DNA of 64,000 nucleotides from a phage. The stretch is from sequence record OZ346158.1; one strand, written 5' to 3'. Shown here piece by piece: positions 13,180 through 63,830 of this stretch. Within the stretch, counting starts at the first letter, position 1. Each line of letters opens with the position of its first letter. Both the position numbers and the translations under genes were made by a program. The notes below the pieces were generated by a model. It did no database searches and was not told the DNA's origin. It saw only the letters and a list, made by a program, of their open reading frames with translations.

Positions 13180-13208
13180 GCCCTGCCCGAAAGGGTGGGG
13201 CATTTTTG
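13180..13208 (+). terminator. rho-independent terminator (same hairpin as 1551-1578)
   Basis: GCCCTGCCCGAAAGGGTGGGGC followed by ATTTTT. Confidence 0.7.
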
Positions 13209-14878: not shown

Positions 14879-15129
14879 CGACCATCTTCTGAGGTGATAT
14901 AGTTTCCACAACAACTAAGAGAGGAGAGCACTGTGGAGACTAAAATCTTAATTCTTGCTGTGGTAGATACAACCGAAGGAGCTATATTCGAATCTGCAGG
15001 AGGGTATTTCTACCTACCATACGGAAAAAGAACTTCCGAGCCAAGTAAAGATTCAATCCTCAAAGTGTTCCCGTGTGCTTTCTGGCTGGAGATTTTGGTA
15101 TAAGATTGCAGATGATTTGGGAGAGAATT

Positions 15130-15324
15130 ATGAGAAACAAGAAAGAACTTTACTCTGGTGAGTGGATCAACGATCAACAGGTGGGAGAGGTAACCTGCTT
15201 CCGATGTTTTACCAGGTACAATCTTAAAACTGCACCAAAAAGTGTTCCAAAGACTGATGGTTATTATATAAAAGAACCTCATTGCCCAAAATGTAAATGC
15301 CGATTGTACTGGAGCAATCTGTAA
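15130..15324 (+). CDS. small zinc-ribbon protein
   Basis: CFRCF...CPKCKC paired CxxC; ATG 15130 after gggagag. Confidence 0.45.
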   Translation: MRNKKELYSGEWINDQQVGEVTCFRCFTRYNLKTAPKSVPKTDGYYIKEPHCPKCKCRLYWSNL

Positions 15325-15328
15325 GAGG

Positions 15329-15356
15329 TTGACATCTGAAAACTGCAGTGTATAAT
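15329..15356 (+). promoter_or_regulatory. sigma70-like promoter (TTGACA-16-TATAAT)
   Basis: Perfect -35 and -10 hexamers with 16-nt spacer upstream of gene 15388. Confidence 0.6.
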
Positions 15357-15387
15357 ATACGCATAAACTAACAGAGAGCGATGTATT

Positions 15388-15579
15388 ATGGTAATTTTTA
15401 ACCGAGATGGTATCATAGTTAGACAGCACCCGTTCCTTGAATACTATCAAATTGAGCAATGGTGCTACGGGGATTGCAGTCACTCCTATGGGCAAAGTTG
15501 GGGATACCGTACAGTTTTTGAATCCACAGACCTTGACAAAGTAAGACAGAAAGTTTTAGAACTTATTAACAACAAGTGA
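15388..15579 (+). CDS. hypothetical protein
   Basis: 63-aa ORF downstream of consensus promoter. Confidence 0.5.
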   Translation: MVIFNRDGIIVRQHPFLEYYQIEQWCYGDCSHSYGQSWGYRTVFESTDLDKVRQKVLELINNK

Positions 15580-15586
15580 GTATGAT

Positions 15587-15919
15587 ATGGTAACATTAGA
15601 AAGACGTAAAGCTATTGCCGCCACACTGGCAGACATCTTTTGGGATTGTAATTTAAAATCTACCCGAAATTGTGGCGCATCTGTAGATGTATTATTCCCA
15701 CGGCCTACTATTGTTGCAATGGGCAACCTTCTTGATGTGGTATATGGAGCATGGGACAAGGAAGGTGGATTCTATATCTGGCAACCTGACTACGGGACTT
15801 GGAAAGAGGTTAGTGGTTCTACGGACTTCACTCCTGCAGTGGCTAAAATGGATGGCTGGAAAATCTATGTCGGTAACGACATGGAACTGAAAGGCGAAAT
15901 TGTTTACTGGTTACCTTAA
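15587..15919 (+). CDS. hypothetical protein
   Basis: 110-aa ORF. Confidence 0.5.
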   Translation: MVTLERRKAIAATLADIFWDCNLKSTRNCGASVDVLFPRPTIVAMGNLLDVVYGAWDKEGGFYIWQPDYGTWKEVSGSTDFTPAVAKMDGWKIYVGNDMELKGEIVYWLP

Positions 15920-15939
15920 GAAAGTGCAGGAGATAAAGT

Positions 15940-16185
15940 ATGAACAAAGGGTGGACATTTGTAGACGGCGTTGAAAACATGCCTCTAGGAAAGTATATTG
16001 TAGCCATGGCAGATGAGAATGGCAAGGTTGATTTCGGAGCTTGCGAGATTGTTCTTGCAGGATCTGGTGACCATGTGCACAAAACTGGGATAATTAACGG
16101 TCATTTCTACTTTGATTACAACCCTGTTGTGGCGTATATGGCTATGCCAGAGTTAGAGCTCCCAAAGGAGGGTGCAGATGTTTAA
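15940..16185 (+). CDS. hypothetical protein
   Basis: 81-aa ORF after caggagata. Confidence 0.5.
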   Translation: MNKGWTFVDGVENMPLGKYIVAMADENGKVDFGACEIVLAGSGDHVHKTGIINGHFYFDYNPVVAYMAMPELELPKEGADV

Positions 16186-16375
16186 GCTTAAATCTGCATG
16201 GAACATCGCTGTGGGGGATGAGATCCGCATCCCAGGTGGAAAGACCATTATGAAGATATCACGTATCGAGTATGAAGGTGATCGTGTATTTCATATCTTT
16301 GCAGAAGATGGTCGAGAAATTTATATACAGGCAGGCTCTCACATCTATATCAGTAAGAAAGGGGACGACAAATGA
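16178..16375 (+). CDS. hypothetical protein
   Basis: ATG 16178 after aaggaggg. Confidence 0.5.
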   Translation: MFKLKSAWNIAVGDEIRIPGGKTIMKISRIEYEGDRVFHIFAEDGREIYIQAGSHIYISKKGDDK

Positions 16376-16704
16376 CAGAGATCATCGTTTCAACTGCAGG
16401 GTATGTATTCCTGACAATCATTGCGTTGGCTATTCTGGTGGCGGTGTATGGATTTGTTATCCTGCCTATTCTTGAGACATTTAGCTTGTGTCGGTGTTGG
16501 AGAAAAGCTTACGGACCACAACCGTGGAAAGACTGGTTTCATTTGGTGCGTATAGCGTTCTCTTATGCCTATGATCACTCCAGCAGTGCATGCGTAACCG
16601 GGTACCATGCCTACAACTGGAACTGGGAAGGGCTTGGGAGATGGACTGTTACAAAAACTATACCCTTACGGTTGTATAAAGGAAAGAACACACTGGGAGC
16701 CTGA
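16372..16704 (+). CDS. hypothetical membrane protein
   Basis: Hydrophobic segment AGYVFLTIIALAILVAVYGFVILPIL; start overlaps upstream stop. Confidence 0.5.
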   Translation: MTEIIVSTAGYVFLTIIALAILVAVYGFVILPILETFSLCRCWRKAYGPQPWKDWFHLVRIAFSYAYDHSSSACVTGYHAYNWNWEGLGRWTVTKTIPLRLYKGKNTLGA

Positions 16705-16739
16705 TATTTTAAGTTATCAGATTGCCAGAGATCAGGAGG

Positions 16740-17200
16740 ATTTCTAAAATGGATTTCCTCCTTTTGATATTTTACCTACCAGGATATTTTAAAATCCTTA
16801 GAAAATCAGAAAATGGATCGAAAACTAAAATGGATTTTTCAGAGCAGGCACGACGAGATGAACCACTCATCCTATCGTCTGCACCATATTCCAGACCACC
16901 ATTACAGATTTCCCGCACATGCTCACATCCTTCTACTAGAACTTCCCCCACTTACCCTTGACCTTTTATAGTAATAATCCAACCACTACCTTGAAGTTGT
17001 GGCGCAGCTTTCCAAGTACTCGATCTGTTTTTCGTTTCAAAGATTTAATTTTCTGAAAATTTTTCTCGATAAATTTCTCAGTACTCGATCTGTTTTTCGT
17101 TTTCTGAATCGGATTTTCTGGAAATCGTTCCGGCTCTCGACCTGAAATTTTTGGGGACGAAATCGATTTTTCGTTTTCAGAAATGGATTTTTAAAATTTC
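16740..17200. repeat. AT-rich iteron-like direct-repeat region (AAATGGAT and (T)CTCGATCTGTTTTTCGTTT families)
   Basis: AAAATGGAT at about 16747, 16811, 16827, 17192; CAGTACTCGATCTGTTTTTCGTTT exact at 17014 and 17079 with degenerate copies through 17180; no ORF. Confidence 0.6.
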
Positions 17201-17295
17201 TATATGGGAATATTTTAGTGGATACTATTTTATAGGAAATTGTTACGGAGGGTAATTAGCGTGCTAATTAAATTTATTAAATGCGAGGAGTTCTC

Positions 17296-17530
17296 ATTTA
17301 GAATTTTGAATGATAATCATTCTCGTTTGCAGAATAACGGGCAGGCCCGGTGATTGTCTCCCGGCCCCTACTGCCCCGGCTTGTTATTATAGTAACACAC
17401 AGGACAAAGAAAGCAAGAAGTTTTTGCATAAATTTTTAGACGATAATGATAATCGTTCTCATTTCATGCAGCGCCCATCCCCGGTGGTTGTCTCCCCCGT
17501 CACCGGTGCCTGCCGTCCTTTCAATAGGTA
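17296..17530. repeat. duplicated structured GC-rich element (core CCGGTGATTGTCTCCC)
   Basis: Two direct copies (about 17296-17380 and 17440-17520) each with GATAATC..TTCTC..TTT..TGCAG leader and CCGGTG(A/G)TTGTCTCCC core; inverted third copy near 26461. Confidence 0.55.
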
Positions 17531-17706
17531 TATTTTGCCACCTGGCGGGGCCGCTGTCAACACTTTTCAAAAAAAAAATTCTAACCTGATGCGCTGACCG
17601 CTGCAACCTGGCAGGGCCTAACTGACCAGGTAGGAGAGAATGAAGGCTTGCAAACCTGGTGGGCCTATGCTATAGGATAGGTAACAATTGAAGAGGAGGT
17701 ACAAAA

Positions 17707-17883
17707 ATGGAAGGTAATATGATCCCCCTGGAAAATGTAGCTATTAATGACGCTGAGGCTATCGCCCTGGTTGAAAAGGCTATGGCGGGAGCGTTGGAAC
17801 ATAAAGAAGAGTACGAAAAAATGGTGGTTAACCTGGCAGGGGCGGCGGCTGGAGAATTCTACCCAAAAAATAATTTTAACTAA
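17707..17883 (+). CDS. hypothetical small protein (58 aa)
   Basis: ATG after gaagaggagg RBS; below ORF-track cutoff; TTGCAA-17-TATAGG promoter-like upstream. Confidence 0.45.
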   Translation: MEGNMIPLENVAINDAEAIALVEKAMAGALEHKEEYEKMVVNLAGAAAGEFYPKNNFN

Positions 17884-17968
17884 TGGTTGACAGCTCGGAC
17901 AGTTCTTGTTATTCTTATCCTCGCAAGGTGAACAACACCACACCAATTAACAGAGAGGATAAAAAATC

Positions 17969-18166
17969 ATGAACGCCTACGGAATTAAAGTACGTCGCAA
18001 CACTCGCCAGGTGGTCACCAATCAAGTGATTTGCCGGGTGGATGTAACCATCAACAACGGGCAAGGCCTTTATAAATTTCGTCGCGGTCATAGCTATACC
18101 CTGCAACAGCTTAACCGTTGCGCCCTGACAAAAGGTCAGATCAACCACTGGTTTAATAAAAAATAA
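17969..18166 (+). CDS. hypothetical protein
   Basis: 65 aa; RBS agagaggat. Confidence 0.5.
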   Translation: MNAYGIKVRRNTRQVVTNQVICRVDVTINNGQGLYKFRRGHSYTLQQLNRCALTKGQINHWFNKK

Positions 18167-18168
18167 TG

Positions 18169-18197
18169 TTGACATAGGGTCTGACACAAAATACACT
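18169..18197 (+). promoter_or_regulatory. sigma70-like promoter (TTGACA-17-TACACT)
   Basis: Upstream of gene 18230. Confidence 0.5.
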
Positions 18198-18229
18198 GAA
18201 ATCACAAAAGACACTAAGAGGATAAAATC

Positions 18230-18628
18230 ATGAAAACCACTACCTTTAATTTTGATAATGCGGACTTTTCTTTTTCTGATGTCAAGAACTGCCGCCGTGA
18301 TCGTGGATTTTACAAGGCTTATAATCTGGTGGGCCTGGACGATGACAATAATTTGCACGAAGTAGCTGAGATCCGGTATTATGCCGCCGCCAGTGGTAAC
18401 ACTCACTACTGCGTGTTTTGGATTCACGACAACAAGAACAATAAGTACGGTTATACTGGCGGCAAGGCGAGCGGTCACGGTTACGATAAAGCTAACGCAG
18501 CACTTGAGAGCGCATTAAATGCTATGGGGATCACTGCCGACGGCTGGATCTACGAAGAAGAGTTTTTGTCGGCACTTGCTGACCACCTGGGCTATAAAAA
18601 GCACATTGTGACATGCGCCCACGAATAA
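18230..18628 (+). CDS. hypothetical protein
   Basis: 132 aa; RBS aagaggat. Confidence 0.55.
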   Translation: MKTTTFNFDNADFSFSDVKNCRRDRGFYKAYNLVGLDDDNNLHEVAEIRYYAAASGNTHYCVFWIHDNKNNKYGYTGGKASGHGYDKANAALESALNAMGITADGWIYEEEFLSALADHLGYKKHIVTCAHE

Positions 18629-18711
18629 AAATCATTGACACGCTGCAAAATTTAAGTAAACTAGACACAAAAGGCGGGAATGTTTCCCGCCAGCACAAAG
18701 GAAAAAAGATC

Positions 18712-19107
18712 ATGAATAAGAACGTACGCCGCATCATGAACGAACTGGCAAACGATGAAAAAATTATTGACATGCATTTAGTCAACATTTGCCGCCGTTG
18801 TGTAACATATAACAACCGCGCCGCAAAAGCGCGTGAGATGAACGCAAAAGGCACCTTAAAGCCCTTTCAGGTGGTTGTAAAATCTATAACCAGTGCAGCA
18901 GGCCAGGCGCATGACCACAACAACGGGAGCACTAATATTGATCCGTCTTACGTAATGAAACGGATCCGGACTTGCAAGAATAAAGAGCAGGTGTATAATG
19001 TCATAGACTGGTTGGATTCTATGGGCGATGTGGTTTACAATAGGTTTTCTGCAGCTATCGAGATCCAGCTTGACAGGTTGGACGGTAAAGTACTGAAAAC
19101 TTACTAA
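18712..19107 (+). CDS. hypothetical protein
   Basis: ORF track 18613..19107; ATG 18712 after aaaggaaaaaag; upstream TTGACA at about 18635. Confidence 0.5.
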   Translation: MNKNVRRIMNELANDEKIIDMHLVNICRRCVTYNNRAAKAREMNAKGTLKPFQVVVKSITSAAGQAHDHNNGSTNIDPSYVMKRIRTCKNKEQVYNVIDWLDSMGDVVYNRFSAAIEIQLDRLDGKVLKTY

Positions 19108-19155
19108 GATTATTTTTAGATGGCCTTGACTTCAGGGCCATCAATAAAGTAAACT
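19107..19155 (+). repeat. 48-bp intergenic cassette copy 1 (hairpin GATGGCC-TTGACTTCAG-GGCCATC + AATAAAGTAAA)
   Basis: Near-identical sequence at 19737-19788 and 23478-23527, each directly after a stop codon. Confidence 0.7.
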
Positions 19156-19308
19156 AATCCCAGTTAAGCGAAAAAGGAGGCTTGAAGATGAGCACTACAC
19201 GCCAACACACAAAGGTAACGATTATCGTTTGCATCATTGGTTACATCCTGGCGCAAATGTTGATGGGTAGCGCCAATGATTTCGCAAAATTTTTCTTAGA
19301 CTTTTAAT

Positions 19309-19335
19309 TGACAAGCTAACTTAAATCAGTATAAT
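19309..19335 (+). promoter_or_regulatory. sigma70-like promoter (TTGACA-16-TATAAT)
   Basis: Consensus hexamers upstream of gene 19388. Confidence 0.6.
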
Positions 19336-19387
19336 ACTAAGCACATAAACGGGAAAACTTCCCAGAACACCAAAAGGAGAAAACATT

Positions 19388-19738
19388 ATGAATACTTCCA
19401 TCACTATGACCGCCGAAGAAAAAGCCCTGCAGATCGCCGCTCTGAAAAAACAGATTGCAGAACTTGAAGACAAGATCGACAATTTTGAAATCGACGAAGA
19501 CAAGTACGACGATAAATATGATGAATGGTTAGACGAGATCTACGGCGAAATTATGATCGGAAACATTTCTTTTCTTCCGTCGCGTATCCTCAAGGAGCTA
19601 GATCCTATCGCTTACCGCTGCGGATTTAGCGACTACATCGACAGCCTGGATATTGAGGACGATGAAGAATACCAGGAATTACAGACAGAGTTAGAAGAAG
19701 CAAAAGAAGAGCTTGCAGAACTGGAAGAAAACGAGTAA
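19388..19738 (+). CDS. hypothetical acidic coiled-coil protein
   Basis: 116 aa, highly acidic (E/D-rich), RBS aaaggagaaaac. Confidence 0.55.
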   Translation: MNTSITMTAEEKALQIAALKKQIAELEDKIDNFEIDEDKYDDKYDEWLDEIYGEIMIGNISFLPSRILKELDPIAYRCGFSDYIDSLDIEDDEEYQELQTELEEAKEELAELEENE

Positions 19739-19788
19739 GATTATTTTTAGATGGCCTTGACTTCAGGGCCATCAATAAAGTAAACTTT
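19737..19788 (+). repeat. 48-bp intergenic cassette copy 2
   Basis: Identical hairpin plus AATAAAGTAAACT as copy 1. Confidence 0.7.
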
Positions 19789-19827
19789 ATACTGTTAACA
19801 CTGAACTAATGCATAGGAGTTAAAACC

Positions 19828-20073
19828 ATGGCAGCACTAATCACCAAATATTATGCCCCTACCAACACCAAAAGCGCCCGTATCATGGTAAAAGGCTTCG
19901 GACGTAAAAAGGTGTACACCTGGGATTATGCCTTAGACACGGAAGACAACTACACCAACGCGATGACCGATTTTATTAATGATCTGAACACGCGGATCTT
20001 GACAAATTATAAAATTACCGATATTGCCTATATAGGGGAAGGCGGGATCTGTTTTGTCGGTATCGTCAAATAA
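19828..20073 (+). CDS. hypothetical protein
   Basis: 81 aa; RBS ATAGGAGTTAAAACCATGG identical to that of gene 24445. Confidence 0.55.
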   Translation: MAALITKYYAPTNTKSARIMVKGFGRKKVYTWDYALDTEDNYTNAMTDFINDLNTRILTNYKITDIAYIGEGGICFVGIVK

Positions 20074-20148
20074 GCTGTTTTTTCGGTGGTCCTGGTAGCA
20101 GGGCCATCTATAAAGATAGTTTATCAATACAATGAAAGGAGAAAGTAC

Positions 20149-20502
20149 ATGATCAGCGGGGCAAGTTTTATTATTGGCGCTATTGCTACGGCTTTAATTG
20201 TAAACAAGATCCAATCTAAAAACGAAAAAGATAGCAACGCCCTTACAGAATACCCGTTTTGGGTATTCAACGACAATGAAGACTATATTATCAAGTACAA
20301 GAATGAGAAGGGCGACCAGGTAACACCTCGACCGATCCCGGCTTACAAGATGCAAGAAACACTATACCGCCTAAAGGCTGGAGGCGCAAAAATCGTAGAC
20401 TTTTGGGGATACGATCACACAGATCAGGAAGTTATAAAGCGCCGTATCCGGGCTATTCAGGCCAATATTGAAGTTAGCAAGGGGGGAATATATGAAGATT
20501 AA
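20149..20502 (+). CDS. hypothetical membrane protein
   Basis: ATG 20149 after gaaaggagaaag; N-terminal TM helix ISGASFIIGAIATALIV. Confidence 0.5.
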   Translation: MISGASFIIGAIATALIVNKIQSKNEKDSNALTEYPFWVFNDNEDYIIKYKNEKGDQVTPRPIPAYKMQETLYRLKAGGAKIVDFWGYDHTDQEVIKRRIRAIQANIEVSKGGIYED

Positions 20503-20689
20503 TTTTGAGAAGATTGTAAAGCGATCTCATGCTTCCGAAGAGCTGCCGGAACGCCGCCAGCGCAACAATAAACTGAATAAGCCAAAAAGATTTGGGAAGA
20601 TCTGGCGGAATCATTATGATCGCAAATTACCGGGCCTGCTTTTGGAACGTGAACGACAGGCGGAACGATACCGCCACAAAGGCAAATAA
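20492..20689 (+). CDS. hypothetical basic protein
   Basis: ATG 20492 after aagggggg; Arg/Lys-rich. Confidence 0.45.
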   Translation: MKINFEKIVKRSHASEELPERRQRNNKLNKPKRFGKIWRNHYDRKLPGLLLERERQAERYRHKGK

Positions 20690-20695
20690 CAACCA

Positions 20696-20725
20696 ACGCC
20701 CCGCCATTGTGCGGGGCTTTTTATT
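20696..20725 (+). terminator. rho-independent terminator
   Basis: GCCCCGC-CATTGT-GCGGGGC followed by TTTTTATTT. Confidence 0.7.
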
Positions 20726-20871
20726 TCTATCCTACAAATAGCGCCCCTGGTTGGCCCTGTAAGCGCCAAAAAGGCCCCACCTATGCAATCGCCCCCCCTT
20801 TAACCTGAAAACATCGCTTAGGGCCGTTTTATGGCGTTAAAAATATCATTGACAGTGATTTTATTTAAAGC

Positions 20872-20899
20872 TTGACATCTTAAACAGGTTAGCTATACT
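20872..20899 (+). promoter_or_regulatory. sigma70-like promoter (TTGACA-16-TATACT)
   Basis: Upstream of gene 20932; second TTGACA at about 20849. Confidence 0.55.
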
Positions 20900-20931
20900 A
20901 ACCACATCAAAGAGAGAAAGGAGTAAACGCC

Positions 20932-21192
20932 ATGCGTAAATTAAAAAATTTTGATAAAGTTGATGTTGTCCTGAATAATTTTTACTACTGCAACAACAAG
21001 GCCATTTGGTGGCGTGATAGTTCCACCGATAAAGTCAAGGCGCGCTTTCTCCAGGGGCACTGGCAAGGCCGCCCAGTGATTAAAATCATGGGGCAATTGG
21101 TAGCGTTTAAAAATTGCCGCCGTGTTGATGACGTTGAAGAGATCTTGAATATTTTACGCCACAATAATTTAAAAAATAGTGTTGACAAGTAA
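20932..21192 (+). CDS. hypothetical protein
   Basis: 86 aa; RBS aaaggagtaaacgcc. Confidence 0.55.
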   Translation: MRKLKNFDKVDVVLNNFYYCNNKAIWWRDSSTDKVKARFLQGHWQGRPVIKIMGQLVAFKNCRRVDDVEEILNILRHNNLKNSVDK

Positions 21193-21209
21193 ATCTCAAT
21201 AAGTATACT
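21182..21209 (+). promoter_or_regulatory. sigma70-like promoter (TTGACA-16-TATACT)
   Basis: Overlaps 3' end of gene 20932; followed by GGCGGGAAGTTTTCCCGCC hairpin and gene 21267. Confidence 0.55.
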
Positions 21210-21266
21210 TAAGCACACAGGCGGGAAGTTTTCCCGCCACTAACAAAGAAAATAGGAGAAAATATC

Positions 21267-21890
21267 ATGACCACCGTTAACATTACCACAGGTTGCAATT
21301 TATCTTTCGACGTGCTGACCGACGAACAAAAAGAAAAAGCTATTGAAATGGTCCGCGAAAGAGAAGAACACAGCGGAGAGGATTTTTTCGCAGAAAGTGT
21401 AATTGAATATTATAAAGAACAAGTTTTTCCAGAGTACGGCCTTGAAGATACCGATGTACATTGGTCCGGCTTTTGGTGTCAAGGCGATGGCGCGTCAATT
21501 AATGCTGAAAATGTAGACTTAGAGAAATTCTTGCGTAAAGTCAAGGCCCTGACCAAGTTCCGATCAATTCGTCACTTGTTCGGCACAATGCACGATGGCG
21601 AACTATCAGCCAGTGTTGAACGCGACAAGTACAGCCATTACAGCCATGAAAACACTGTAAGCGGATATATTGATACTACCTGGCTAGATCTGACCGCAAA
21701 ACAAGAAAATAAAGTAGAAGATCTGGAAGAGCTGATCACCGAGACGGTACGGGAGCTATCCCGCAAGGTTTATGTAGACCTGGAGGAGGCCTATCTTGAA
21801 CAGTTTACTACCGAAAACCTGATCGGCCTTATTGAAGCCAATGATTGGCGGTTTGATGTGGATGAATATGGAGAAATGAGTTTTTCATAA
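21267..21890 (+). CDS. hypothetical acidic protein
   Basis: 207 aa; RBS ataggagaaaat. Confidence 0.55.
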   Translation: MTTVNITTGCNLSFDVLTDEQKEKAIEMVREREEHSGEDFFAESVIEYYKEQVFPEYGLEDTDVHWSGFWCQGDGASINAENVDLEKFLRKVKALTKFRSIRHLFGTMHDGELSASVERDKYSHYSHENTVSGYIDTTWLDLTAKQENKVEDLEELITETVRELSRKVYVDLEEAYLEQFTTENLIGLIEANDWRFDVDEYGEMSFS

Positions 21891-21981
21891 ATAAAGTGTT
21901 GCAATAATCTAAAAACCTGCTATATTAAAACTTAAGGGGGAGAGATGACTTGCCCCCACACAAAACAAAGAGGAAAACATC

Positions 21982-22362
21982 ATGAAAAACACTACTAAAG
22001 CTATTGACACCGTTATGTTTAACCTGGTTACATTCCGTGAAGATATGAAAGATCTTCCACGTGAAACAGTGTGCGACCATATCGAAAACTATCGCAAACT
22101 AATCAAAGAGTTGCCTTTAAAACGTGACCAGTACGCGGCTAACGCTATGCTTAACGCCATGATCAAGAAAATGATTCAGTGCGATTTGACTTTAGCTTAT
22201 GATTATGCAGGTGGTCGTTTTGCAGTATACAATCAGCCCGTGCCTGGTATGAGCACCACAGAAGAATTGCACGCGTTAAATCTAAAACAAGACGTATGGG
22301 ATAACATGCCCCGCGTGGTGGTGTGGGCAGAAAGCGGAAAGATTTACGGCGATAATTTTTAA
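21982..22362 (+). CDS. hypothetical protein
   Basis: 126 aa; RBS aagaggaaaac; followed by terminator hairpin. Confidence 0.55.
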   Translation: MKNTTKAIDTVMFNLVTFREDMKDLPRETVCDHIENYRKLIKELPLKRDQYAANAMLNAMIKKMIQCDLTLAYDYAGGRFAVYNQPVPGMSTTEELHALNLKQDVWDNMPRVVVWAESGKIYGDNF

Positions 22363-22371
22363 TCAGGTAAC

Positions 22372-22398
22372 AGGCGGCATATTTGCCGCCTTATTGTT
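22372..22398 (+). terminator. rho-independent terminator
   Basis: GGCGGCA-TATT-TGCCGCC followed by TTATTGTT. Confidence 0.6.
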
Positions 22399-22426
22399 AA
22401 ACAGAACTGCAAAAGAGGTACATAGA

Positions 22427-22798
22427 ATGGAATTTATTATTTTGGCTGTAGTAGTTGCCTTGTTCAACGCCTGGATCGCTGGCAAGATAGGTAGATCCGC
22501 TTTTCTATGGTTTGTTATATCTATTTTCCTGGGAGTGGTTGCAACTATTGTATTGGTTATCCTTGCAATTGTTGACAAGGGGAATAATAGAAAGGGTAAA
22601 GTATTTTCAGACCTGTACGACGCTCAAACGTTTGTCAACGCCTATTATAGTGATCTTCCAGTCTCCCTACGTTGCAGCCTTGCACAACAGGTTTTCGATG
22701 AAGCTAAAACCAGAGATCACGCCCATGAGATTTGTTTAACTGAGGCGGATCGCCTATTTGAGAGGAATAGAAAATATGTGGACCAGCCGTTTAAATAA
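22427..22798 (+). CDS. hypothetical membrane protein
   Basis: ATG 22427 after aaagaggta; two predicted TM helices. Confidence 0.5.
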   Translation: MEFIILAVVVALFNAWIAGKIGRSAFLWFVISIFLGVVATIVLVILAIVDKGNNRKGKVFSDLYDAQTFVNAYYSDLPVSLRCSLAQQVFDEAKTRDHAHEICLTEADRLFERNRKYVDQPFK

Positions 22799-22851
22799 TG
22801 CCACGTTAATTAACCCCTTTAGTGAAGATTTGAAGCCAGCCGCCTGGCGGG

Positions 22852-23136
22852 ATGGATTCAATAACGAAAGCTTTATTTTCAGGCCTGATCTTAAGGAATT
22901 TTATAACAATGGATCGAACAACGACAGAGATAATTTTTCTTGTAATGTGCGTGGTGATAATACTCCTGGGGGCCATTGCAAACCACGTCACTGCTAACAG
23001 GAGGAAAGGGGAGACGATGACACCCAAGGATAAGCCCCGTACCGATAAGGCGCGCCGTGTTATGGTATGGCTTGAGATCATCGCCCTTGAAATATTGTTA
23101 GGCGTAGGGATGTATTTTATCGCTGTAAGTAATTGA
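22852..23136 (+). CDS. hypothetical small membrane protein (start uncertain)
   Basis: Hydrophobic segments; best RBS aggaggaaagg precedes internal ATG near 23016. Confidence 0.35.
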   Translation: MDSITKALFSGLILRNFITMDRTTTEIIFLVMCVVIILLGAIANHVTANRRKGETMTPKDKPRTDKARRVMVWLEIIALEILLGVGMYFIAVSN

Positions 23137-23276
23137 TAACGGCCCCGATCCCTGGGGCCTAACTTTTCAAATTTTTTTCTCCCTGAGTGTTGCAATCCGA
23201 TCCAGAATATGGATAATAACAATCAACGGGGAGACACTCCCCACCGCATAGACAAAGTTCCAAAAGGAGAAACAAA

Positions 23277-23477
23277 ATGAGCAACAATATCCGCGTTATT
23301 AACTTCAAAAAAGAAGAAAAAATTGCCGTGCTGATTGACGGTCAAGAAATCTTTAAAGGTGATTATGAAGATCATCAAACGGCGATTAGTATCACTCGCG
23401 TGATTGGTTACCATAATTTTTACCCTCAAGGCGCTGAGGCAGCAGTAAAACGAATTAAAGAGATTGTAGGCCTGTAA
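23277..23477 (+). CDS. hypothetical protein
   Basis: 66 aa; RBS aaaggagaaac; preceded by GGGGAGACACTCCCC hairpin. Confidence 0.55.
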   Translation: MSNNIRVINFKKEEKIAVLIDGQEIFKGDYEDHQTAISITRVIGYHNFYPQGAEAAVKRIKEIVGL

Positions 23478-23527
23478 AATTTATTTTTAGATGGCCTTGA
23501 CTCCAGGGCCATCAATAAAGTAAATTT
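23478..23527 (+). repeat. 48-bp intergenic cassette copy 3
   Basis: GATGGCCTTGACTCCAGGGCCATCAATAAAGTAAAT, one mismatch relative to copies 1 and 2. Confidence 0.7.
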
Positions 23528-23568
23528 AAACCCTGTTAAAATAATCAGTGCAAAAAGGAGTAATGATC

Positions 23569-23868
23569 ATGTTTATCCAGGCTAATAATCTTTATTTCTT
23601 TGATGGTCAGATCGTAGACGGCGTGGAGGTGGAAATCACCGGGTGCCCTGGCGGTCAGGTTATGACTTTTCGGAATAATGCCTTTGATGATTCTCATATC
23701 GTTATGAGAATGGAAGTTAGTAAGCTGGATGACAAGAAAACACTCATTGATTATTCCGTGAAAGATCATCCAGACTACCACATGATCTATGGTGATTTGT
23801 GCATTGTTGACCGTGACAAGGTGGGCGGCATTGTGATCGCTATTGTGAACGATGTTTTCTCAAACTAA
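23569..23868 (+). CDS. hypothetical protein
   Basis: ORF track 23548..23868; ATG 23569 after aaaggag. Confidence 0.5.
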   Translation: MFIQANNLYFFDGQIVDGVEVEITGCPGGQVMTFRNNAFDDSHIVMRMEVSKLDDKKTLIDYSVKDHPDYHMIYGDLCIVDRDKVGGIVIAIVNDVFSN

Positions 23869-23885
23869 TTTCAGCAGGTGATTTT

Positions 23886-24236
23886 ATGAAAGTAAAACTA
23901 TATTACCTTAATGAGCTTAACCCCCTTGCCCAGGTCCGCGCCATGGCTAATACCTTGATTTGTGAGAAATCTGTATATTGTGTTGAGCTTAACTCCATGC
24001 GTGAACGTCTCAAAGGTGGTTACTTTGACATCCATGCTGCAATCAACGGCCTGAATATGGAATTTATCCGCTTACGTAACAGCCGCCAGAATCTGGGAAG
24101 AATGGAACAAGATCCGGCCCACCTTCGTAAGCTGGTTATTGAAAATCATCTAATGTTTAATGCCGATGGTGATTATTACCATTTTCACCGTAAACGCTGG
24201 TACCGTAGCGGCAATATAGGAAAGAATGCAAAATAA
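23886..24236 (+). CDS. hypothetical protein
   Basis: 116 aa; followed by terminator. Confidence 0.5.
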   Translation: MKVKLYYLNELNPLAQVRAMANTLICEKSVYCVELNSMRERLKGGYFDIHAAINGLNMEFIRLRNSRQNLGRMEQDPAHLRKLVIENHLMFNADGDYYHFHRKRWYRSGNIGKNAK

Positions 24237-24271
24237 GGCCCCTGGCAGGGCCTGCAGCGATATAATCACAT

Positions 24272-24306
24272 AAAGGCTATGCGGTTGCATAGCCTTTATT
24301 ATTTTG
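24272..24306 (+). terminator. rho-independent terminator
   Basis: AAAGGCTATGC-GGTT-GCATAGCCTTT followed by ATTATTTT. Confidence 0.7.
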
Positions 24307-24444
24307 GCGTTACAGCGGCCCCCAAGGCGCTTAAAAAAATTTTTAAAGAAGTACTTGCATCAAGTCCTACAATATGGATAATAAAGGGTGTCGGGGGGGC
24401 GGTGAGGCCTCCAATCATTAACCGGATAGATAGGAGTTAAAACC

Positions 24445-24729
24445 ATGGCTATTGTTACCGTTGGCGATGTAGTAGAAATGGAAGCCAAATACTTAAAAGC
24501 TGGTATGCATATCATACGGAATGATCAAGAATTGTTATTAACCATGGTTGAATATAATCCCGGTCAGGATTATCCAAGCATTGACTACTTTTTCCAGTAT
24601 GTTGATGAAGAATTAAAAGAGGATGAGGCTTATCAGGGTGAATTTTGTAATTTCTTTTGCCCTGATGAGGTTGTAAAAGTTATCTATCAACCTGGCGTAC
24701 CTTTCCCGCTGCACGCTATCAACAAATAA
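24445..24729 (+). CDS. hypothetical protein
   Basis: 94 aa; RBS ATAGGAGTTAAAACCATGG. Confidence 0.55.
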   Translation: MAIVTVGDVVEMEAKYLKAGMHIIRNDQELLLTMVEYNPGQDYPSIDYFFQYVDEELKEDEAYQGEFCNFFCPDEVVKVIYQPGVPFPLHAINK

Positions 24730-24784
24730 ACCTGGCGGGGCCGAAAAGGCCCCCAATTATGAAAATAAAGAGAGGCAAATCATC

Positions 24785-25018
24785 ATGATGGAACAAATTA
24801 AACGCGCCGAGGCTATTAATGGCAACGTGATCTATTTTGTCAGCAAAAACGAAAAAGGCGTACCCTATGCGGCGGTAATAGTACAGCCTGACGGCGATTA
24901 TTGGTGTACTGTGTACGGCGCTTATTCTTTTGGGCGTCCAGTGCATGATAAAATTTTGAAAGTAGCGAACCCTACCGGGAAAAATATCACAGCAGAAAAA
25001 TTTTTTGAAAATAGTTGA
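24785..25018 (+). CDS. hypothetical protein
   Basis: 77 aa; RBS aaagagaggcaaatcatc. Confidence 0.55.
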   Translation: MMEQIKRAEAINGNVIYFVSKNEKGVPYAAVIVQPDGDYWCTVYGAYSFGRPVHDKILKVANPTGKNITAEKFFENS

Positions 25019-25042
25019 CATGACCATATAAGACTGTAGTAT
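25015..25042 (+). promoter_or_regulatory. sigma70-like promoter (TTGACA-16-TAGTAT)
   Basis: Upstream of a 59-aa ORF at about 25090..25269. Confidence 0.5.
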
Positions 25043-25779
25043 ATAAATCAAAGGGGCAAGCCCCACCAACCACAAAGAGGATAAAAATCATGGCTATTAT
25101 TGCAAAGACTGAGATCGTAGGCTTGGATTCTATTCTCCTCGCATATGAGGAAGCTATAGAAATGTATGTGGTTTCCTATGGTGAGTATATCCGTGAATAT
25201 AAATCTATTGATCTGGCTTTTGAATGTTATATTCGCCAGGTTAATAAAGCGTACGATGATTATCGTTAAAATAGTTTGAAAACAAACAACCATCTTACAA
25301 AGCATAATACATAAGGCGGTGGAATGGTCCGCCACCTGGAACAAGAAGAGGAAAACAAAATGAAACAGAAATTAATTGATGCGGTGATCCTGGTTATTGC
25401 CCTGGGTATTGGCCTGATTGCAACCATGGCTAATGTGATCTTGTCTTCCAACGGTATCGGGTGAGGTTGGCAAATGATCACTAACAAAACAGGCAAGCGG
25501 AATTTTTACTCAACTTACAGATCGGCAAGCCTGAGATCTGGTATTGCACTAAAACACCACGTGACGAAATGAAAGACTTCACCGCCACGCTGCAACGGGT
25601 AAAGATATCCATCACGCAGAAAAAGGCCTTGATAGTGGTGGAAGGTGAGATCCCTCAAACCGTTGTTATAGTTGAGCGTACAGCATAGTTTAATTTATAC
25701 CGATACCCGAAAATTAACCAACAAAGCATAAACAGGCGGTTACCGCCGCCTTAAACGTAGCAGAAAGAGGATAGACACA

Positions 25780-26064
25780 ATGAAAAAGATGATCGCAGTG
25801 GTTGCCCTGGTTGTTGGACTTAATGCGCCTGTAATGGCTAAAGAGCTGGCAAAAGAGGTTAATCTAACGGATATTCATGCCGTCAATCGAATCGGGGTTA
25901 CTTATCGCTTATGCCTTGCCGCTAAAACTTTTAAGGACGGCACGACAGAGTACTACGGATTCGAAGGTGTCCGGTGCGGTGAACTTGCTCGCGACCTTAA
26001 GGAAGATCCAGACCTGGAGGATCTGCCCATCACCGTAAACGGGAAAACTTACGTAAACCGTTAA
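25780..26064 (+). CDS. hypothetical secreted protein (signal peptide)
   Basis: N-terminus MKKMIAVVALVVGLNAPVMA is signal-peptide-like; RBS aaagaggat. Confidence 0.55.
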   Translation: MKKMIAVVALVVGLNAPVMAKELAKEVNLTDIHAVNRIGVTYRLCLAAKTFKDGTTEYYGFEGVRCGELARDLKEDPDLEDLPITVNGKTYVNR

Positions 26065-26212
26065 CCATGATAAAGATAATCATCACCTTGGCATCGTGGC
26101 GGGATCGCTGGCGCTCTTTCTCCTTATGGTTAGGTATGTGCTGATCGGTATTGTCCTGGTAGTCAGTGATCTATTGGAAACGGTTGGCACCTTGTTTTAA
26201 AGAGCGGTAAAA

Positions 26213-26404
26213 ATGAATATCGAACAAGTTAGAAAGGTATTGGCGGTACTGCGTTATCATAATCATAGAAAGGTCATAGACGATCCTGATTATGTCGATT
26301 CAAGCCTGGAAGGGGATACACTACAAGCCATAAGTAACATGCAAGAATTGCTAAAGCGCATGACAGAGAAAAACCGACCGGACTACATAGGCGAAAAAAT
26401 ATAA
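26213..26404 (+). CDS. hypothetical protein
   Basis: 63-aa ORF. Confidence 0.45.
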   Translation: MNIEQVRKVLAVLRYHNHRKVIDDPDYVDSSLEGDTLQAISNMQELLKRMTEKNRPDYIGEKI

Positions 26405-26615
26405 TCCTTATAAACTACAAAACAGGGCTTGCAATGGTCCTGTTTTTTGTTATACTTGTTTCACGGCAGGCGCCTGGCGACGGGGGAGACAATCACCGGG
26501 TGTGCCTGCTATATAAAAACTATAAAAACCGTTGACATCTGCCAGGTGGTGGGGTAGCATTTATCTCGAAGGGGGCAAAAGCGCCCACACAACAACCGGA
26601 AGAGAGGAAAACGCC

Positions 26616-26888
26616 ATGTTAAGCTGGATTAACCAAGAAGTTGAATCACGTTTCAATGCTATTTGGGATCTCATCGAAAAAGAGGACGGAACATCAAGCC
26701 CTTATCTCAATAATCTTGAATTCCATTTCGTGGAAGCGATGAACGCAGAACATGATCACGAAGGTGGTGCGGATGAATTCGCTAAAGGATATGGCTTCAA
26801 CAATGCCAACGAAATGATCGAGGCGGTTGTACTCCAGGCTGAGGAAGATTATCAATTAAAAACGCTTGAATTCTGCCGCCGTAAGTAA
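26616..26888 (+). CDS. hypothetical protein
   Basis: ORF track 26532..26888; internal ATG after gaagagaggaaaac; upstream TTGACA at about 26532. Confidence 0.5.
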   Translation: MLSWINQEVESRFNAIWDLIEKEDGTSSPYLNNLEFHFVEAMNAEHDHEGGADEFAKGYGFNNANEMIEAVVLQAEEDYQLKTLEFCRRK

Positions 26889-26950
26889 TAAGATAATGAC
26901 ACGGGCCAAAAGGCCCACTAAACAAAAACCACATAAAGAGGAAAAACATC

Positions 26951-27214
26951 ATGAAACGTCTTGATCAGCTCAAATTAGTTCAATATATGGCTTATCGTGT
27001 TCTTGAAGTCCAGAAAGGTAGCAAAAAAGAGGTTTGCGAGAAAGCTTATAAGATCTTCACTCGCAAAAAAGATGATTGGATGTTACGCCAGACCAAAAAA
27101 GCCGATATCTTGGGGTACCTGGAAGAAGAGATCCGGCTTGAAGAGCAAGAAGAGATCCGCCGCAGTGAGGCAGATTATCAGGCAGCTTGGGAAAACTGGA
27201 TGAATAACAAATAA
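26951..27214 (+). CDS. hypothetical protein
   Basis: 87 aa; RBS aaagaggaaaaac; preceded by GGGCCAAAAGGCCC hairpin. Confidence 0.55.
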   Translation: MKRLDQLKLVQYMAYRVLEVQKGSKKEVCEKAYKIFTRKKDDWMLRQTKKADILGYLEEEIRLEEQEEIRRSEADYQAAWENWMNNK

Positions 27215-27280
27215 TACAACAAGTTACATGGTCAGGGGCAATAAAGCCCCTTGATCACATAAAAATTATGCCATCCTTGG

Positions 27281-27309
27281 TTGACAGGGATCGGCAGTTT
27301 TGCTATATT
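27281..27309 (+). promoter_or_regulatory. sigma70-like promoter (TTGACA-17-TATATT)
   Basis: Upstream of gene 27359. Confidence 0.55.
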
Positions 27310-27358
27310 CTTTTTTGAAGGGAAGTTGTAAGAAAATTAACTAAGAGGTAAAAACACC

Positions 27359-27778
27359 ATGAACATTAAATCTAATAATCCGGCATATAGCTTTGATAAC
27401 GCTTTTTGTCACGGTCCGGCGGCGAAAGGATTCGAAATCGATGGTAAACTAGTTATTGTCAATGTTGACGGGGAAGAGGTTGCAGTATATCCGGTGGCAG
27501 ACGTTAAAAGCCGTCTACAATGCCGCATCGATGTTACCGCCTACCAGCTTGATCCGGTCCGGGTAGTTGCCCTGGTCCTGGAAGAAGAAATTAAAGCAAT
27601 GCACCACAGCAACAAGTTTATTGGTGACGCTCAAGATAATATGAAGGTGTGCCGCCATAAAGTTAATGAAGTGCTTAAAGAATATGGCTTTAAAGATCTG
27701 ATGATCAAACGTGAGGAAAAATTCCGCTACCGTAACGACCTGGCAAATCGGATTTTTGAAATATACGAATCATTATAA
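27359..27778 (+). CDS. hypothetical protein
   Basis: 139 aa; RBS aagaggtaaaaac. Confidence 0.55.
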   Translation: MNIKSNNPAYSFDNAFCHGPAAKGFEIDGKLVIVNVDGEEVAVYPVADVKSRLQCRIDVTAYQLDPVRVVALVLEEEIKAMHHSNKFIGDAQDNMKVCRHKVNEVLKEYGFKDLMIKREEKFRYRNDLANRIFEIYESL

Positions 27779-27796
27779 TTTCTTAACTGAATTATC

Positions 27797-27824
27797 AAGG
27801 GGCTTAAAGGCCCCTTTCTTTTTG
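27797..27824 (+). terminator. rho-independent terminator ending the + strand block
   Basis: AGGGGC-TTAAAG-GCCCCT followed by TTCTTTTTG. Confidence 0.7.
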
Positions 27825-28544
27825 TCTGCTCTTCTCCTACCATAAACGGCCCTACCTGGCAAGTGGAATAATTGACTAGCCATCAATCCCACATACTGTA
27901 CAAATATACATGGAAAATAACTATTGCATAATTTTTCATTGTGTGGTAGCAAGTCCATTTTTACCCGTTTTCTCTCCCAAAAGTGCACGTAATGCCGCTA
28001 TTGCACAAATTTTAACCTGATGCACATCTCCAATATCTTGTCAACAACTAAAAATCTTTATAAGTCATACACTTACACAGCATCGAAAGCGTGTTCTACG
28101 CGAAAAATCGAGTATAACTATAGCCGCCAGATCTCAGAATTCACGTACGCACGCCATTCTATAGCCTGCAAAGTATTTATTCCAACCACAGAATAACGGA
28201 ATAGTCAATACCTGCATAAAATAATTATTCGTGTAAACTGCATAACATAAATCAGCTCAGGTGTCAACATTTTTCGTAAACAGTCCGAAATTATCACGAT
28301 GAGTTATCATAAACAGAGAAATCTTTAGTCGTCTAATGTTTACTGTACATTACTATACTGACTGGAATCATTAGATGACTAATACAATAGAACAAATTAA
28401 TAATGTAATTATTTTACCTGTAACAATAAGGCAACTATGCAAACGAATGGCATGGCGCGACGGAGTCGCGACATAATATAAAAGCAGTAACCATCACCCC
28501 CGTGATAGTTTGTCTGCAAACTATTAATCAGATCATAGTTGCCT

Positions 28545-63672: not shown

Positions 63673-63749
63673 ACCAGTAAAAACTTAAATATCTGTACTA
63701 TAAGGATTCGTATGTTTTATGTTCGCTCTGGAACAGAGGTTAGTAACTG

Positions 63750-63830
63750 TCCGTGATACGGACACTACTGTCCGTCACGCGGACACATCTGCCCGTAATA
63801 CGGACACTAACTGTCCGTGATACGGACACA
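63750..63830. repeat. four tandem palindromic iterons (CTGTCCGTGATACGGACAC family) followed by AT-rich tract
   Basis: CTGTCCGTGATACGGACAC at about 63757 and 63808 (exact), variants CTGTCCGTCACGCGGACAC and CTGCCCGTAATACGGACAC between; each has GTCCGT/ACGGAC dyad. Confidence 0.7.

Follow-up and report, generated by a model that had tools for sequence, protein, structure and literature searches.

Repeated cassettes that combine an early promoter with a stem-loop (promoter-early stem-loop, PeSL) have been described in the T4-type phages RB49/phi1, PST and nt-1/KVP40 (Arbiol et al. 2010, PMC2839356; Comeau et al. 2014, PMC4122927). By definition, the stem-loop stands before, inside or after the promoter and may overlap the -35 element, a stop codon lies upstream in an AT-rich stretch and the stem may contain G·T pairs; promoter and terminator activity and the formation of mini-circles also characterize the class; the promoters are near-perfect, with boxes about 17 nt apart, the stem is a simple Gn-loop-Cn, and a recombination protein that binds the stem-loop has been a matter of speculation by the same authors (PMC2839356, PMC4122927). 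The subject of this paper is an intergenic cassette of comparable type, found in four copies among the early genes of the phage sequence OZ346158.1, of which a stretch of 64,000 nucleotides (hereafter, the window) was analysed. Between 17000 and 25000, the window is 99.4% identical to Escherichia phage MaxBurger, and the same region matches 139 phage records, almost all of them Vequintavirus (rV5-like) myoviruses, phages in wide use as therapeutic and model coliphages.

The PeSL cassettes are the closest described class, and their definition fits the Vequintavirus cassette in most respects. Both are repeated intergenic motifs (approx. 50-100 bp for the PeSLs) among small early genes, non-essential in the PeSL phages (hyperplastic region); in both, an AT-rich stretch contains the stop codon of the preceding gene, the stem-loop is stable and has G·T (here G·U) pairs, and a Shine-Dalgarno (SD) sequence and start codon come after the cassette, the 10-bp stem of which overlaps the -35-like box. 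The sigma70-like boxes that go with the PeSL stem-loop have a putative counterpart in copies 1-3. In both, relatives differ by the presence of a module flanked by two cassettes or of one chimeric cassette in its stead. The differences are equally clear. The cassette belongs to Vequintavirinae, with one transfer to Stephanstirmvirinae, and has no sequence similarity to the T4-type PeSLs; its putative promoter is much weaker (9/12 matches with an 18-nt spacer), and one copy is promoter-less; its hairpin has two tiers, about 20 bp in all, with an internal loop that is conserved and a lower stem that covaries.

The second comparison concerns the processing signals of Escherichia coli RNase III. 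The enzyme acts on about two helical turns and needs the cut site and the loop to be separated by 11 bp or more; in the distal box UA/UG is the optimum and the U·G is stringently required, whereas at position 2 of the proximal box AU/UA is preferred and GC/CG forbidden, as GC/CG also is at position 4; internal loops confine the enzyme to one strand, and the cut leaves a protective 3' hairpin (PMC1540722, PMC3867540).

In the light of the evidence that follows, the cassette is best read as a PeSL-like composite, the conserved core of which is an intercistronic RNA hairpin. In its full form, which joins RNase III-type processing and stabilization, a modest promoter in copies 1-3 and the function of a recombination linker, this reading is given about an even chance of being correct.

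Copies of the cassette

A preliminary description of the sequence had reported three copies, two of them identical and the third with one mismatch, each directly after a stop codon. These three are real and exceed chance: the 24-nt core GATGGCCTTGACTTCAGGGCCATC occurs exactly at 19119-19142 and 19750-19773 and with one mismatch at 23490-23513, none being expected from shuffled sequences. Copies 1 (19105-19155) and 2 (19736-19786) are indeed identical across 51 nt; the single mismatch of copy 3 holds within the core, 5 of 51 positions differing from copy 1 over the whole cassette (90% identity). The total is four, since a repeat search also returned a diverged copy, overlooked until then, at 20071-20121 (69% identical; 20070-20124 as folded), which likewise sits on a stop codon. 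In keeping with the stop codons reported, copies 1-3 each start on the TAA of the upstream open reading frame (ORF; 19105-19107, 19736-19738 and 23475-23477, respectively), and in all four copies the TAA lies at the base of the lower stem. The end of the cassette and the next start codon are 25-45 nt apart, with SD and ATG downstream.

A covariance model, built from 20 copies and run on the window with filters off, finds exactly these four copies, all on the + strand, and no other; the scores are 73-83 bits on the + strand versus 30-40 bits on the reverse complement. BLAST of MaxBurger gives three places with copy 1 as the query and one with copy 4, which suggests that there are four copies in the whole genome.

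RNA fold and selection

When the sense-strand RNA is folded, the upper part of the cassette becomes a stem of 10 bp, GAUGGCCUUG/CAGGGCCAUC, which includes a single U·G pair and is capped by a 4-nt loop; below it lie a 2/3-nt internal loop (UA / AAU) and, then, a lower stem of 7-13 bp, in which a U-rich 5' flank pairs with an A-rich 3' flank. The 7-bp stem with TTGACT in its loop, as initially proposed, is part of this larger structure: with an upper stem of 10 bp and a loop of 4 nt, the TTG of TTGACT is paired, and only ACT is in the loop. The + strand folds with -20.7 to -28.2 kcal/mol (z scores from -5.0 to -8.3) and the - strand with just -9 to -15 kcal/mol, because the G·U pairs turn into C·A mismatches there. 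The cassette hairpins rank among the most stable local structures of the window.

That the fold is maintained emerges from 31 distinct copies collected from 14 sources. Standard pairs account for 98.7% of the pair cells, as opposed to 33-57% when the partners are slid, and the covariation score is 0.196 against 0.06 or less in the same comparison. Changes on both sides are found in four pairs of the lower stem (G-C/A-U, U-A/C-G, U-A/G·U/A-U and A-U/U-A), and one of the four, a change from C-G to U-A, arises among the orthologues of copy 4; three pairs of the upper stem vary solely via G·U. In copy 4, the 5' arm of the upper stem differs from that of copies 1-3 at three positions, all of them transitions that preserve pairing with the unchanged 3' arm. 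Natural single variants also stay paired, the C-to-U change in EdH4 copy 3 yielding G·U and the G-to-A change in A141 copy 3 yielding U-A, and the internal loop UA / AAU is conserved in all copies. Exceptions to the fold are few, namely Gotham copy 1, with a 5-nt deletion, and one metagenomic copy with a broken closing pair.

Constraint is strong. In an alignment of seven genomes, 6.7% of the cassette sites vary, versus 18.7% in other intergenic DNA, 27.3% at codon position 3 and 5.9% at positions 1 and 2, and in a lineage that is only about 85% identical overall copies 2 and 3 are almost unchanged. The cassette ranks among the most constrained non-coding sequences of the early region. The cassette repeat is real, selected and strand-specific.

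Such constraint might also be the mark of a binding site for a specific phage or host protein, either an RNA-binding regulator of the cistrons or a recombination factor that binds DNA or a cruciform. Recognition of the sequence, and not of the structure alone, would then account for the conservation. Even the diverged paralogues agree fully in the 3' arm CAGGGCCAUC and in the AUAAAG after it, conservation is on a par with that of non-synonymous sites, and the speculation of the PeSL authors goes in the same direction. However, no protein emerged as a candidate, and the genes nearby all lack an assigned function; between the hairpin and the next start codon there are 25-45 nt, and the ribosome-binding site stays uncovered, so that a translational operator is unlikely; and the strand asymmetry due to the G·U pairs speaks against a DNA cruciform. 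A protein-binding site is, overall, considered very unlikely.

Relation to the T7 early processing signals

An intercistronic hairpin read by host RNase III, as favoured here, has its model in the early region of T7. The T7 sites are not annotated in the RefSeq record, and we take them to lie in the intergenic gaps to which the Dunn & Studier map assigns them. Placed in this way, the T7 early gaps fold into a GC-rich upper stem of 9-10 bp with a loop of 4-5 nt, an asymmetric internal loop and an AU lower stem, with the exception of the 0.6/0.7 gap, where no hairpin is found in the stretch chosen for folding. The cassette is built on the same plan (upper stem, loop, asymmetric internal loop, AU-rich lower stem) and, like R0.3, R0.5, R1, R1.1 and R1.3, is intercistronic within an operon; furthermore, the operon of copies 2 and 4 is bounded, as the T7 early operon is, by a perfect promoter and a canonical terminator.

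The likeness extends to single base pairs. Counted from the loop, the upper stem of the cassette reads G-C, U-A, U·G, C-G, C-G, G-C, G-C, U-A, A-U, G-C, and the top pairs of copies 1-3 (G-C, U-A, U·G) compare with C-G, U-A, U·G in R1.1, which amounts to a canonical UA/UG distal box. Between the predicted cut and the loop there are 10 bp plus a loop position, as in natural R1.1. The helix totals 17-23 bp (10 bp in the upper stem and 7-13 bp in the lower one), in agreement with the rule of about two turns. At position 2 of the proximal box, copies 1-3 have A-U and copy 4 has G·U; position 4 is an A·A mismatch within the internal loop. With R1, which folds with a 2/3 internal loop and AAU on its 3' side, the cassette shares both features. 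On the other hand, it has no sequence homology to the T7 sites, its internal loop is smaller than that of R1.1, R0.3 and R0.5 (2/3 versus approx. 4/5 nt), and it overlaps promoter-like hexamers in a way that the T7 sites do not. The likeness is one of resemblance and of rule-checking. On this analogy, we infer that host RNase III would recognize the cassette much as it does the T7 early processing signals.

Exchange of early modules

The cassette also marks the borders of variable DNA. In ECP26, magaca and contig L015, the 631-bp module that lies between copies 1 and 2 of the window is precisely absent; after the 134-aa gene these genomes have just one cassette, a chimera with the left flank of copy 1 and the right flank of copy 2. 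The chimeric cassettes bear different lineage-specific variants, which suggests more than one event of module loss. Similarly, paralogues within one genome share derived variants (copies 1 and 2 of the window, the ACAC loops of EdH4 and others), which indicates exchange between the copies within genomes.

A transfer between subfamilies is found in KKE7M, a phi92-like Justusliebigvirus, which carries a promoter, the 116-aa gene and a cassette about 90% identical to those of the window. The left junction lies in a promoter that is near-identical between the two subfamilies and the right junction in AATAAAGTAAA; from these positions it follows that the TAAATT of the cassette takes the place of a genuine -10, at the same distance from the 5'-untranslated region (UTR) hairpin of the next gene. 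The corresponding slot is empty in muut, where a single promoter, TTGACA-16-TAAACT, is found, and in UAB_1 and A150 it contains an unrelated gene followed by TTGCAA-16-TAAACT. These comparisons of genomes show the cassette to be a crossover point at which early modules are gained, lost and swapped. More generally, the comparative data show short conserved regulatory sequences to be sites of crossover through which early modules can be lost, gained and moved across subfamilies, an exchange that bears on the spread of accessory genes, possibly anti-defence genes among them.

As a side observation, three arrangements occur ahead of the gp242-like gene among the Justusliebigvirus genomes UAB_1, muut, A150 and KKE7M: the slot there is empty, is taken by a 71-aa gene or holds the Vequintavirus module. 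A few hundred bases upstream, the same phages have a second variable slot. The junctions lie in near-identical early promoters, and the exchange amounts to promoter-mediated shuffling of modules in phi92-like phages.

The putative promoter

The preliminary description had paired TTGACT with GTAAAC or TAAAGT as the -10, about 17 nt downstream. The former, at 17 nt, has only 3/6 matches and the latter stands at just 13 nt; the best combination in copies 1-3 is TTGACT-18-TAAACT/TAAATT, with 9/12 matches, preceded by a T-rich stretch. TAAACT is also the -10 of the genuine promoter at 18635. Genuine early promoters in the region have an A-rich upstream stretch, TTGACA, a spacer of 16-17 nt and TAnAnT, followed by a GC-rich 5'-UTR hairpin and an SD.

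In KKE7M, the -10 of the cassette motif TTGACT-18-TAAATT falls in exact register with TAAACT, the genuine -10 of the promoter that muut and UAB_1 have at that place. Together with the hexamers themselves, this register speaks for a modest sigma70 promoter in copies 1-3. A promoter is, however, not the conserved core of the cassette, because copy 4 keeps the structure, by compensatory and wobble changes, with neither hexamer, and a natural variant with 20-nt spacing keeps the fold. The idea of a combined hairpin and promoter cassette, as proposed at first, is reasonable; it corresponds to the PeSL class and gains support for its promoter from the KKE7M register; the anatomy was misread, and the strand-specific RNA structure, the RNase III-like geometry and the role in recombination were overlooked.

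A mechanism that accommodates these features can be outlined as follows. In read-through sense transcripts, all four copies fold into a two-tier hairpin of approx. 50-60 nt. A single RNase III cut would fall in the 3' strand of the internal loop, with 3' ends predicted at ...GGCCAUCAAU and, for the product that begins with AAAGUAAA..., 5'-monophosphate ends. The 10-bp hairpin would stay on the upstream cistron and shield its 3' end from exonucleases, and the downstream cistron would become an mRNA of its own. In copies 1-3, the T-rich upstream stretch, a TTGACW half in the stem, the 18-bp spacer and TAAAYT would, in addition, have the next gene transcribed, a promoter part that copy 4 has lost or never had. 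Finally, since near-identical copies of approx. 50 bp flank small early genes, homologous recombination between them removes or adds the module in between, and recombination with similar promoter sequences of other phages likewise leads to gain or loss of modules. Shown are the repeats, the strand specificity of the structure and its covariation, the strong constraint, the precise indels and the junctions of exchange; cleavage by RNase III, the stabilizing effect and promoter activity are inferred.

Several observations weigh against this composite reading. With regard to processing, the distal box of copy 4 is UA/CG (as is that of T7 R0.5) and its proximal-box position 2 is G·U; position 3 of the proximal box is G-C, versus A-U in R1.1; in copies 1 and 2 the lower stem amounts to a mere 7+2 bp and is rich in AU; and TTGACT begins with the very base that gives the conserved U of the U·G pair, which constraint on the -35 can therefore explain as well. 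With regard to selection, the identity among copies 1-3 could come in part from gene conversion. With regard to the promoter, 9/12 matches are common (62 found in 15 kb, with 36 expected), the spacer has 18 nt instead of the 16-17 nt that accompany TTGACA in genuine local promoters, and one natural variant of copy 1 (L016/L038) has TTGATA and 20-nt spacing with the fold intact. In the literature on rV5-like phages, no transcriptome, RNase III work or description of the cassette was found, nor any transcript-end, cleavage or reporter data.

The points that concern the promoter are also those that would favour a pure RNA element, with the hairpin, whether an RNase III site or some other signal for processing or stability, as its sole function; TTGACT and TAAAYT would then merely result from the sequence of stem and flank, or be left over from an ancestral promoter, and would start no transcription. 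To these must be added copy 4, in which both hexamers are absent and the structure is retained, the fact that the -10 positions belong to the covarying lower stem, where one of them covaries with its partner, and the absence of the cassette from the 33 promoters of the rV5 authors. Against such an element stand, besides the exact register of the -10 with that of a genuine promoter, the conservation of the loop bases AC of TTGAC, which hardly vary while the next two are free to do so, alignment column 56 (an A of the -10), which is fixed even as its pairing partner drifts, and the location of the cassettes, which occupy places where neighbouring genes carry promoters of their own. A pure RNA element is judged unlikely; with a promoter plus attenuator (see below), it is one of the two main rivals.

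A wider proposition, that one sequence of approx. 50 nt encodes, in overlap, a promoter, an RNase III processing and stability signal and a recombination linker, is put forward tentatively, as possible but doubtful. Should it be correct, PeSL stem-loops would in general be RNase III signals and not terminators, early operons of large myoviruses would be organized post-transcriptionally like the T7 early operon, and modules could move between phage subfamilies together with their own signals for transcription and mRNA processing.

A hairpin promoter of the single-strand or N4 type was set aside, given that an RNA polymerase of their own is not known in these phages (as stated for the related CB7).

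A different kind of hairpin accompanies the strong early promoters of the region. Short GC-rich hairpins (e.g. GGCGGGAA..UUCCCGCC) follow most of the strong sigma70 early promoters, about 10 nt past the -10 and right where the predicted transcript has its 5' end, and are themselves followed by an SD; they are found at 18673-18691, 19350-19364 and approx. 21218-21238, and after the promoters at 25015 and 26532. The layout of promoter, hairpin and SD recurs in the phi92-like phage UAB_1. These may be 5'-terminal stabilizing hairpins, or PeSLs of the subclass with the 'stem-loop downstream of the -10'.

Table 1. Positions of the four cassette copies, of their parts and predicted cleavage sites, and of the associated module and operon in the window.
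Feature	Position	Strand	Details
Copy 1	19107-19155	+	dG -20.7 kcal/mol, z -5.0; 80.7 bits on +, 36.8 on -
Copy 1, parts	lower stem 19107-19116/19146-19155; internal loop 19117-19118/19143-19145; upper stem 19119-19128/19133-19142; tetraloop 19129-19132	+	tetraloop ACUU
Copy 2	19738-19786	+	upper stem 19750-19759/19764-19773; dG -21.1 kcal/mol, z -5.6; 82.9 bits
Copy 3	23477-23527	+	upper stem 23490-23499/23504-23513; loop ACUC; 11-bp lower stem; dG -23.6 kcal/mol, z -5.4; 82.3 bits
Copy 4	20070-20124	+	upper stem GGUGGUCCUG/CAGGGCCAUC 20085-20094/20099-20108; loop GUAG; 13-bp lower stem; no -35/-10 hexamers
Copy 4, scores		+	dG -28.2 kcal/mol, z -8.3; 73.3 bits; fourth most stable 64-nt window on the + strand
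Sigma70-like motif, copy 1	19126-19155	+	TTGACT 19126-19131, 18-nt spacer, TAAACT 19150-19155
Sigma70-like motif, copies 2 and 3	19757-19786; 23497-23526	+	9/12 matches; TAAATT in copy 3
Predicted RNase III cut, copy 1	19145/19146	+	past the AAU of the internal loop, 13 nt 3' of the tetraloop; analogy with T7 R1.1
Predicted RNase III cuts, other copies	19776/19777; 20111/20112; 23516/23517	+	by analogy with T7 R1.1
Module flanked by copies 1 and 2	19156-19737	+	39-aa ORF 19188-19307; perfect sigma70 promoter 19308-19335; 5'-UTR hairpin 19350-19364; 116-aa ORF 19388-19738
Operon with copies 2 and 4	19308-20727	+	promoter P19308 (TTGACA-16-TATAAT), 116-aa gene, copy 2, 81-aa gene, copy 4, 117-aa and 65-aa genes, terminator

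Termination and previous annotation

The hairpin had also been called terminator-like, with the remark that it lacks a U-tract. The remark is accurate for both strands, the stem being followed by AAUAAAGUAAA on the + strand and by UAAAAAUAAU on the - strand; the label finds no support. A terminator scan passes over the cassette sites and calls canonical U-tract terminators at 20698, 24270, 26419 and 27797. An intrinsic terminator was, therefore, rejected, as no U-tract is present on either strand. ARNold-type tools, as applied to rV5 and EdH4, likewise call other terminators in the region and not the cassettes, and in the tables of the rV5 genome paper the cassette sequence is listed under neither promoters nor terminators. 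An Rfam scan of 17000-26000 at a permissive threshold gives, as the best overlapping matches, 22-23 bits against gathering thresholds of 50-80 (E = 0.9-3.3), so that no family matches.

Annotators have been inconsistent. In most genomes the cassette bears no label, and the labels that exist disagree: the annotators of Murica made copy 4 a terminator, and PhagePromoter called copies 2 and 3 promoters in Gotham. Both calls are in keeping with a classical PeSL, close to the preliminary description, i.e. an early promoter with an attenuating or terminating stem-loop that insulates neighbouring modules, with no role for RNase III; PeSL stem-loops that overlap the -35 have indeed been described, and one PeSL stem-loop cut lacZ expression as much as rrnB T1. 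Nevertheless, the stem lacks the U-tract, both kinds of terminator prediction skip these sites, a covarying AU lower stem and a conserved internal loop would be superfluous for a simple attenuator, and copies 2 and 4 reside in an operon that owns a canonical terminator, so that an insulating attenuator is judged unlikely. If, instead, the RNase III reading holds, intercistronic processing of the T7 style would reach into a large myovirus, and the 'terminator' activity of PeSLs would be worth re-examining.

Distribution

Across more than 110 genomes, the copies keep their syntenic positions, and copy number changes solely by loss of the flanked module. In all collections searched, the cassette is confined to Vequintavirus and KKE7M, and the distribution of copy 4 is no wider. 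Orthologous positions in other genera offer nothing to compare, the 134-aa upstream gene being confined to Vequintavirus. Among viral contigs, a scan gave 15 loci, with real copies only in two Vequintavirus-like contigs. The scan of metagenome contigs gave at least 120 stretches, 80 of which were run through the covariance model; real copies are present at five Vequintavirus-like loci among the 80 matches listed. In bacterial genomes, the scan gave 12 matches, all of them unrelated hairpins of Pseudomonas or Rhodospirillales that share just the forced stem.

These bacterial hairpins deserve a separate mention. Twelve species genomes, mainly of pseudomonads (L145-L156: Pseudomonas, Halopseudomonas, Rhodospirillales), each have a single occurrence of the same 10-bp stem, GATGGCCTTG-N4-CAGGGCCATC; with 32 bits or less, it is unrelated to the phage cassette and may represent a hairpin that is conserved beside a conserved gene.

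The REP and BIME elements of bacteria are intercistronic palindromes that stabilize the upstream mRNA; they are chromosomal, of high copy number, present in both orientations and of a different consensus. The cassette resembles them in being an imperfect palindrome just after stop codons inside operons, which could block 3'-5' exonucleases, and differs in that it is found in a phage, in four copies all on one strand, and folds into two tiers in an RNase III-like way. A selfish or neutral palindromic repeat of the REP or miniature-transposable type, spread in the early region, of no use to the phage and kept by gene conversion, would account for the repetition of such a palindrome in intergenic DNA just past stop codons and for the homogenization of copies within genomes. 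It fits poorly with only four copies in one orientation, with their synteny and the mode of copy number change described above, with the compensatory changes that hold the fold in copy 4 and its orthologues, and with an occurrence outside this phage group only where the cassette is carried with a gene; accordingly, it is regarded as extremely improbable. MITE-like transposition was set aside for similar reasons, the copies being syntenic, few and in one orientation.

Genomic setting and further features of the window

From approx. 15000 to 28000, every credible gene is on the + strand, and the genes are small early genes of unassigned function. Copies 2 and 4 fall within a single operon that has a perfect promoter at 19308, three intergenic gaps and, at its end, a canonical intrinsic terminator at 20698, made of a hairpin (20698-20717) and a T-tract; the Murica annotation carries the orthologous operon genes and the terminator. 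The 65-aa gene of this operon (20492-20689) has a Murica orthologue noted as 'T7 gp1.1-like'. At 24237-24300, two strong neighbouring hairpins, stable on both strands (-29 and -33 kcal/mol), look like a bidirectional terminator region that ends the operon with copy 3.

Other structured sequences were encountered in the window. In the gap before the 126-aa gene, 21912-21984 gives a weak Rfam match to Clostridium-PBP RNA (37 bits versus a gathering threshold of 94, E = 0.035), which is probably due to chance. A canonical terminator hairpin (GCCCTGCCCGAAAGGGTGGGGCTTTTT) is present twice, 11.6 kb apart, at 1552-1578 and 13180-13206, with 96% identity. Three direct repeats of 47-57 nt, spaced 65-74 nt, lie at 17006-17191 in T-rich DNA with no convincing ORF and may correspond to the 'non-coding' box of the rV5 genome map. 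The most stable local structure of the window on both strands (-30 and -35 kcal/mol) is an array at 63744-63829, made of four tandem units of 21-22 nt, each a small inverted repeat (TGTCCGTnnnACGGACA), which could be an operator or iteron array.

Finally, about 20 GenBank records of the MG0656xx series ('Campylobacter phage', UNVERIFIED; e.g. L007 and L159) are 90-98% identical to E. coli Vequintavirus or Justusliebigvirus genomes, and their Campylobacter jejuni host labels are probably wrong.

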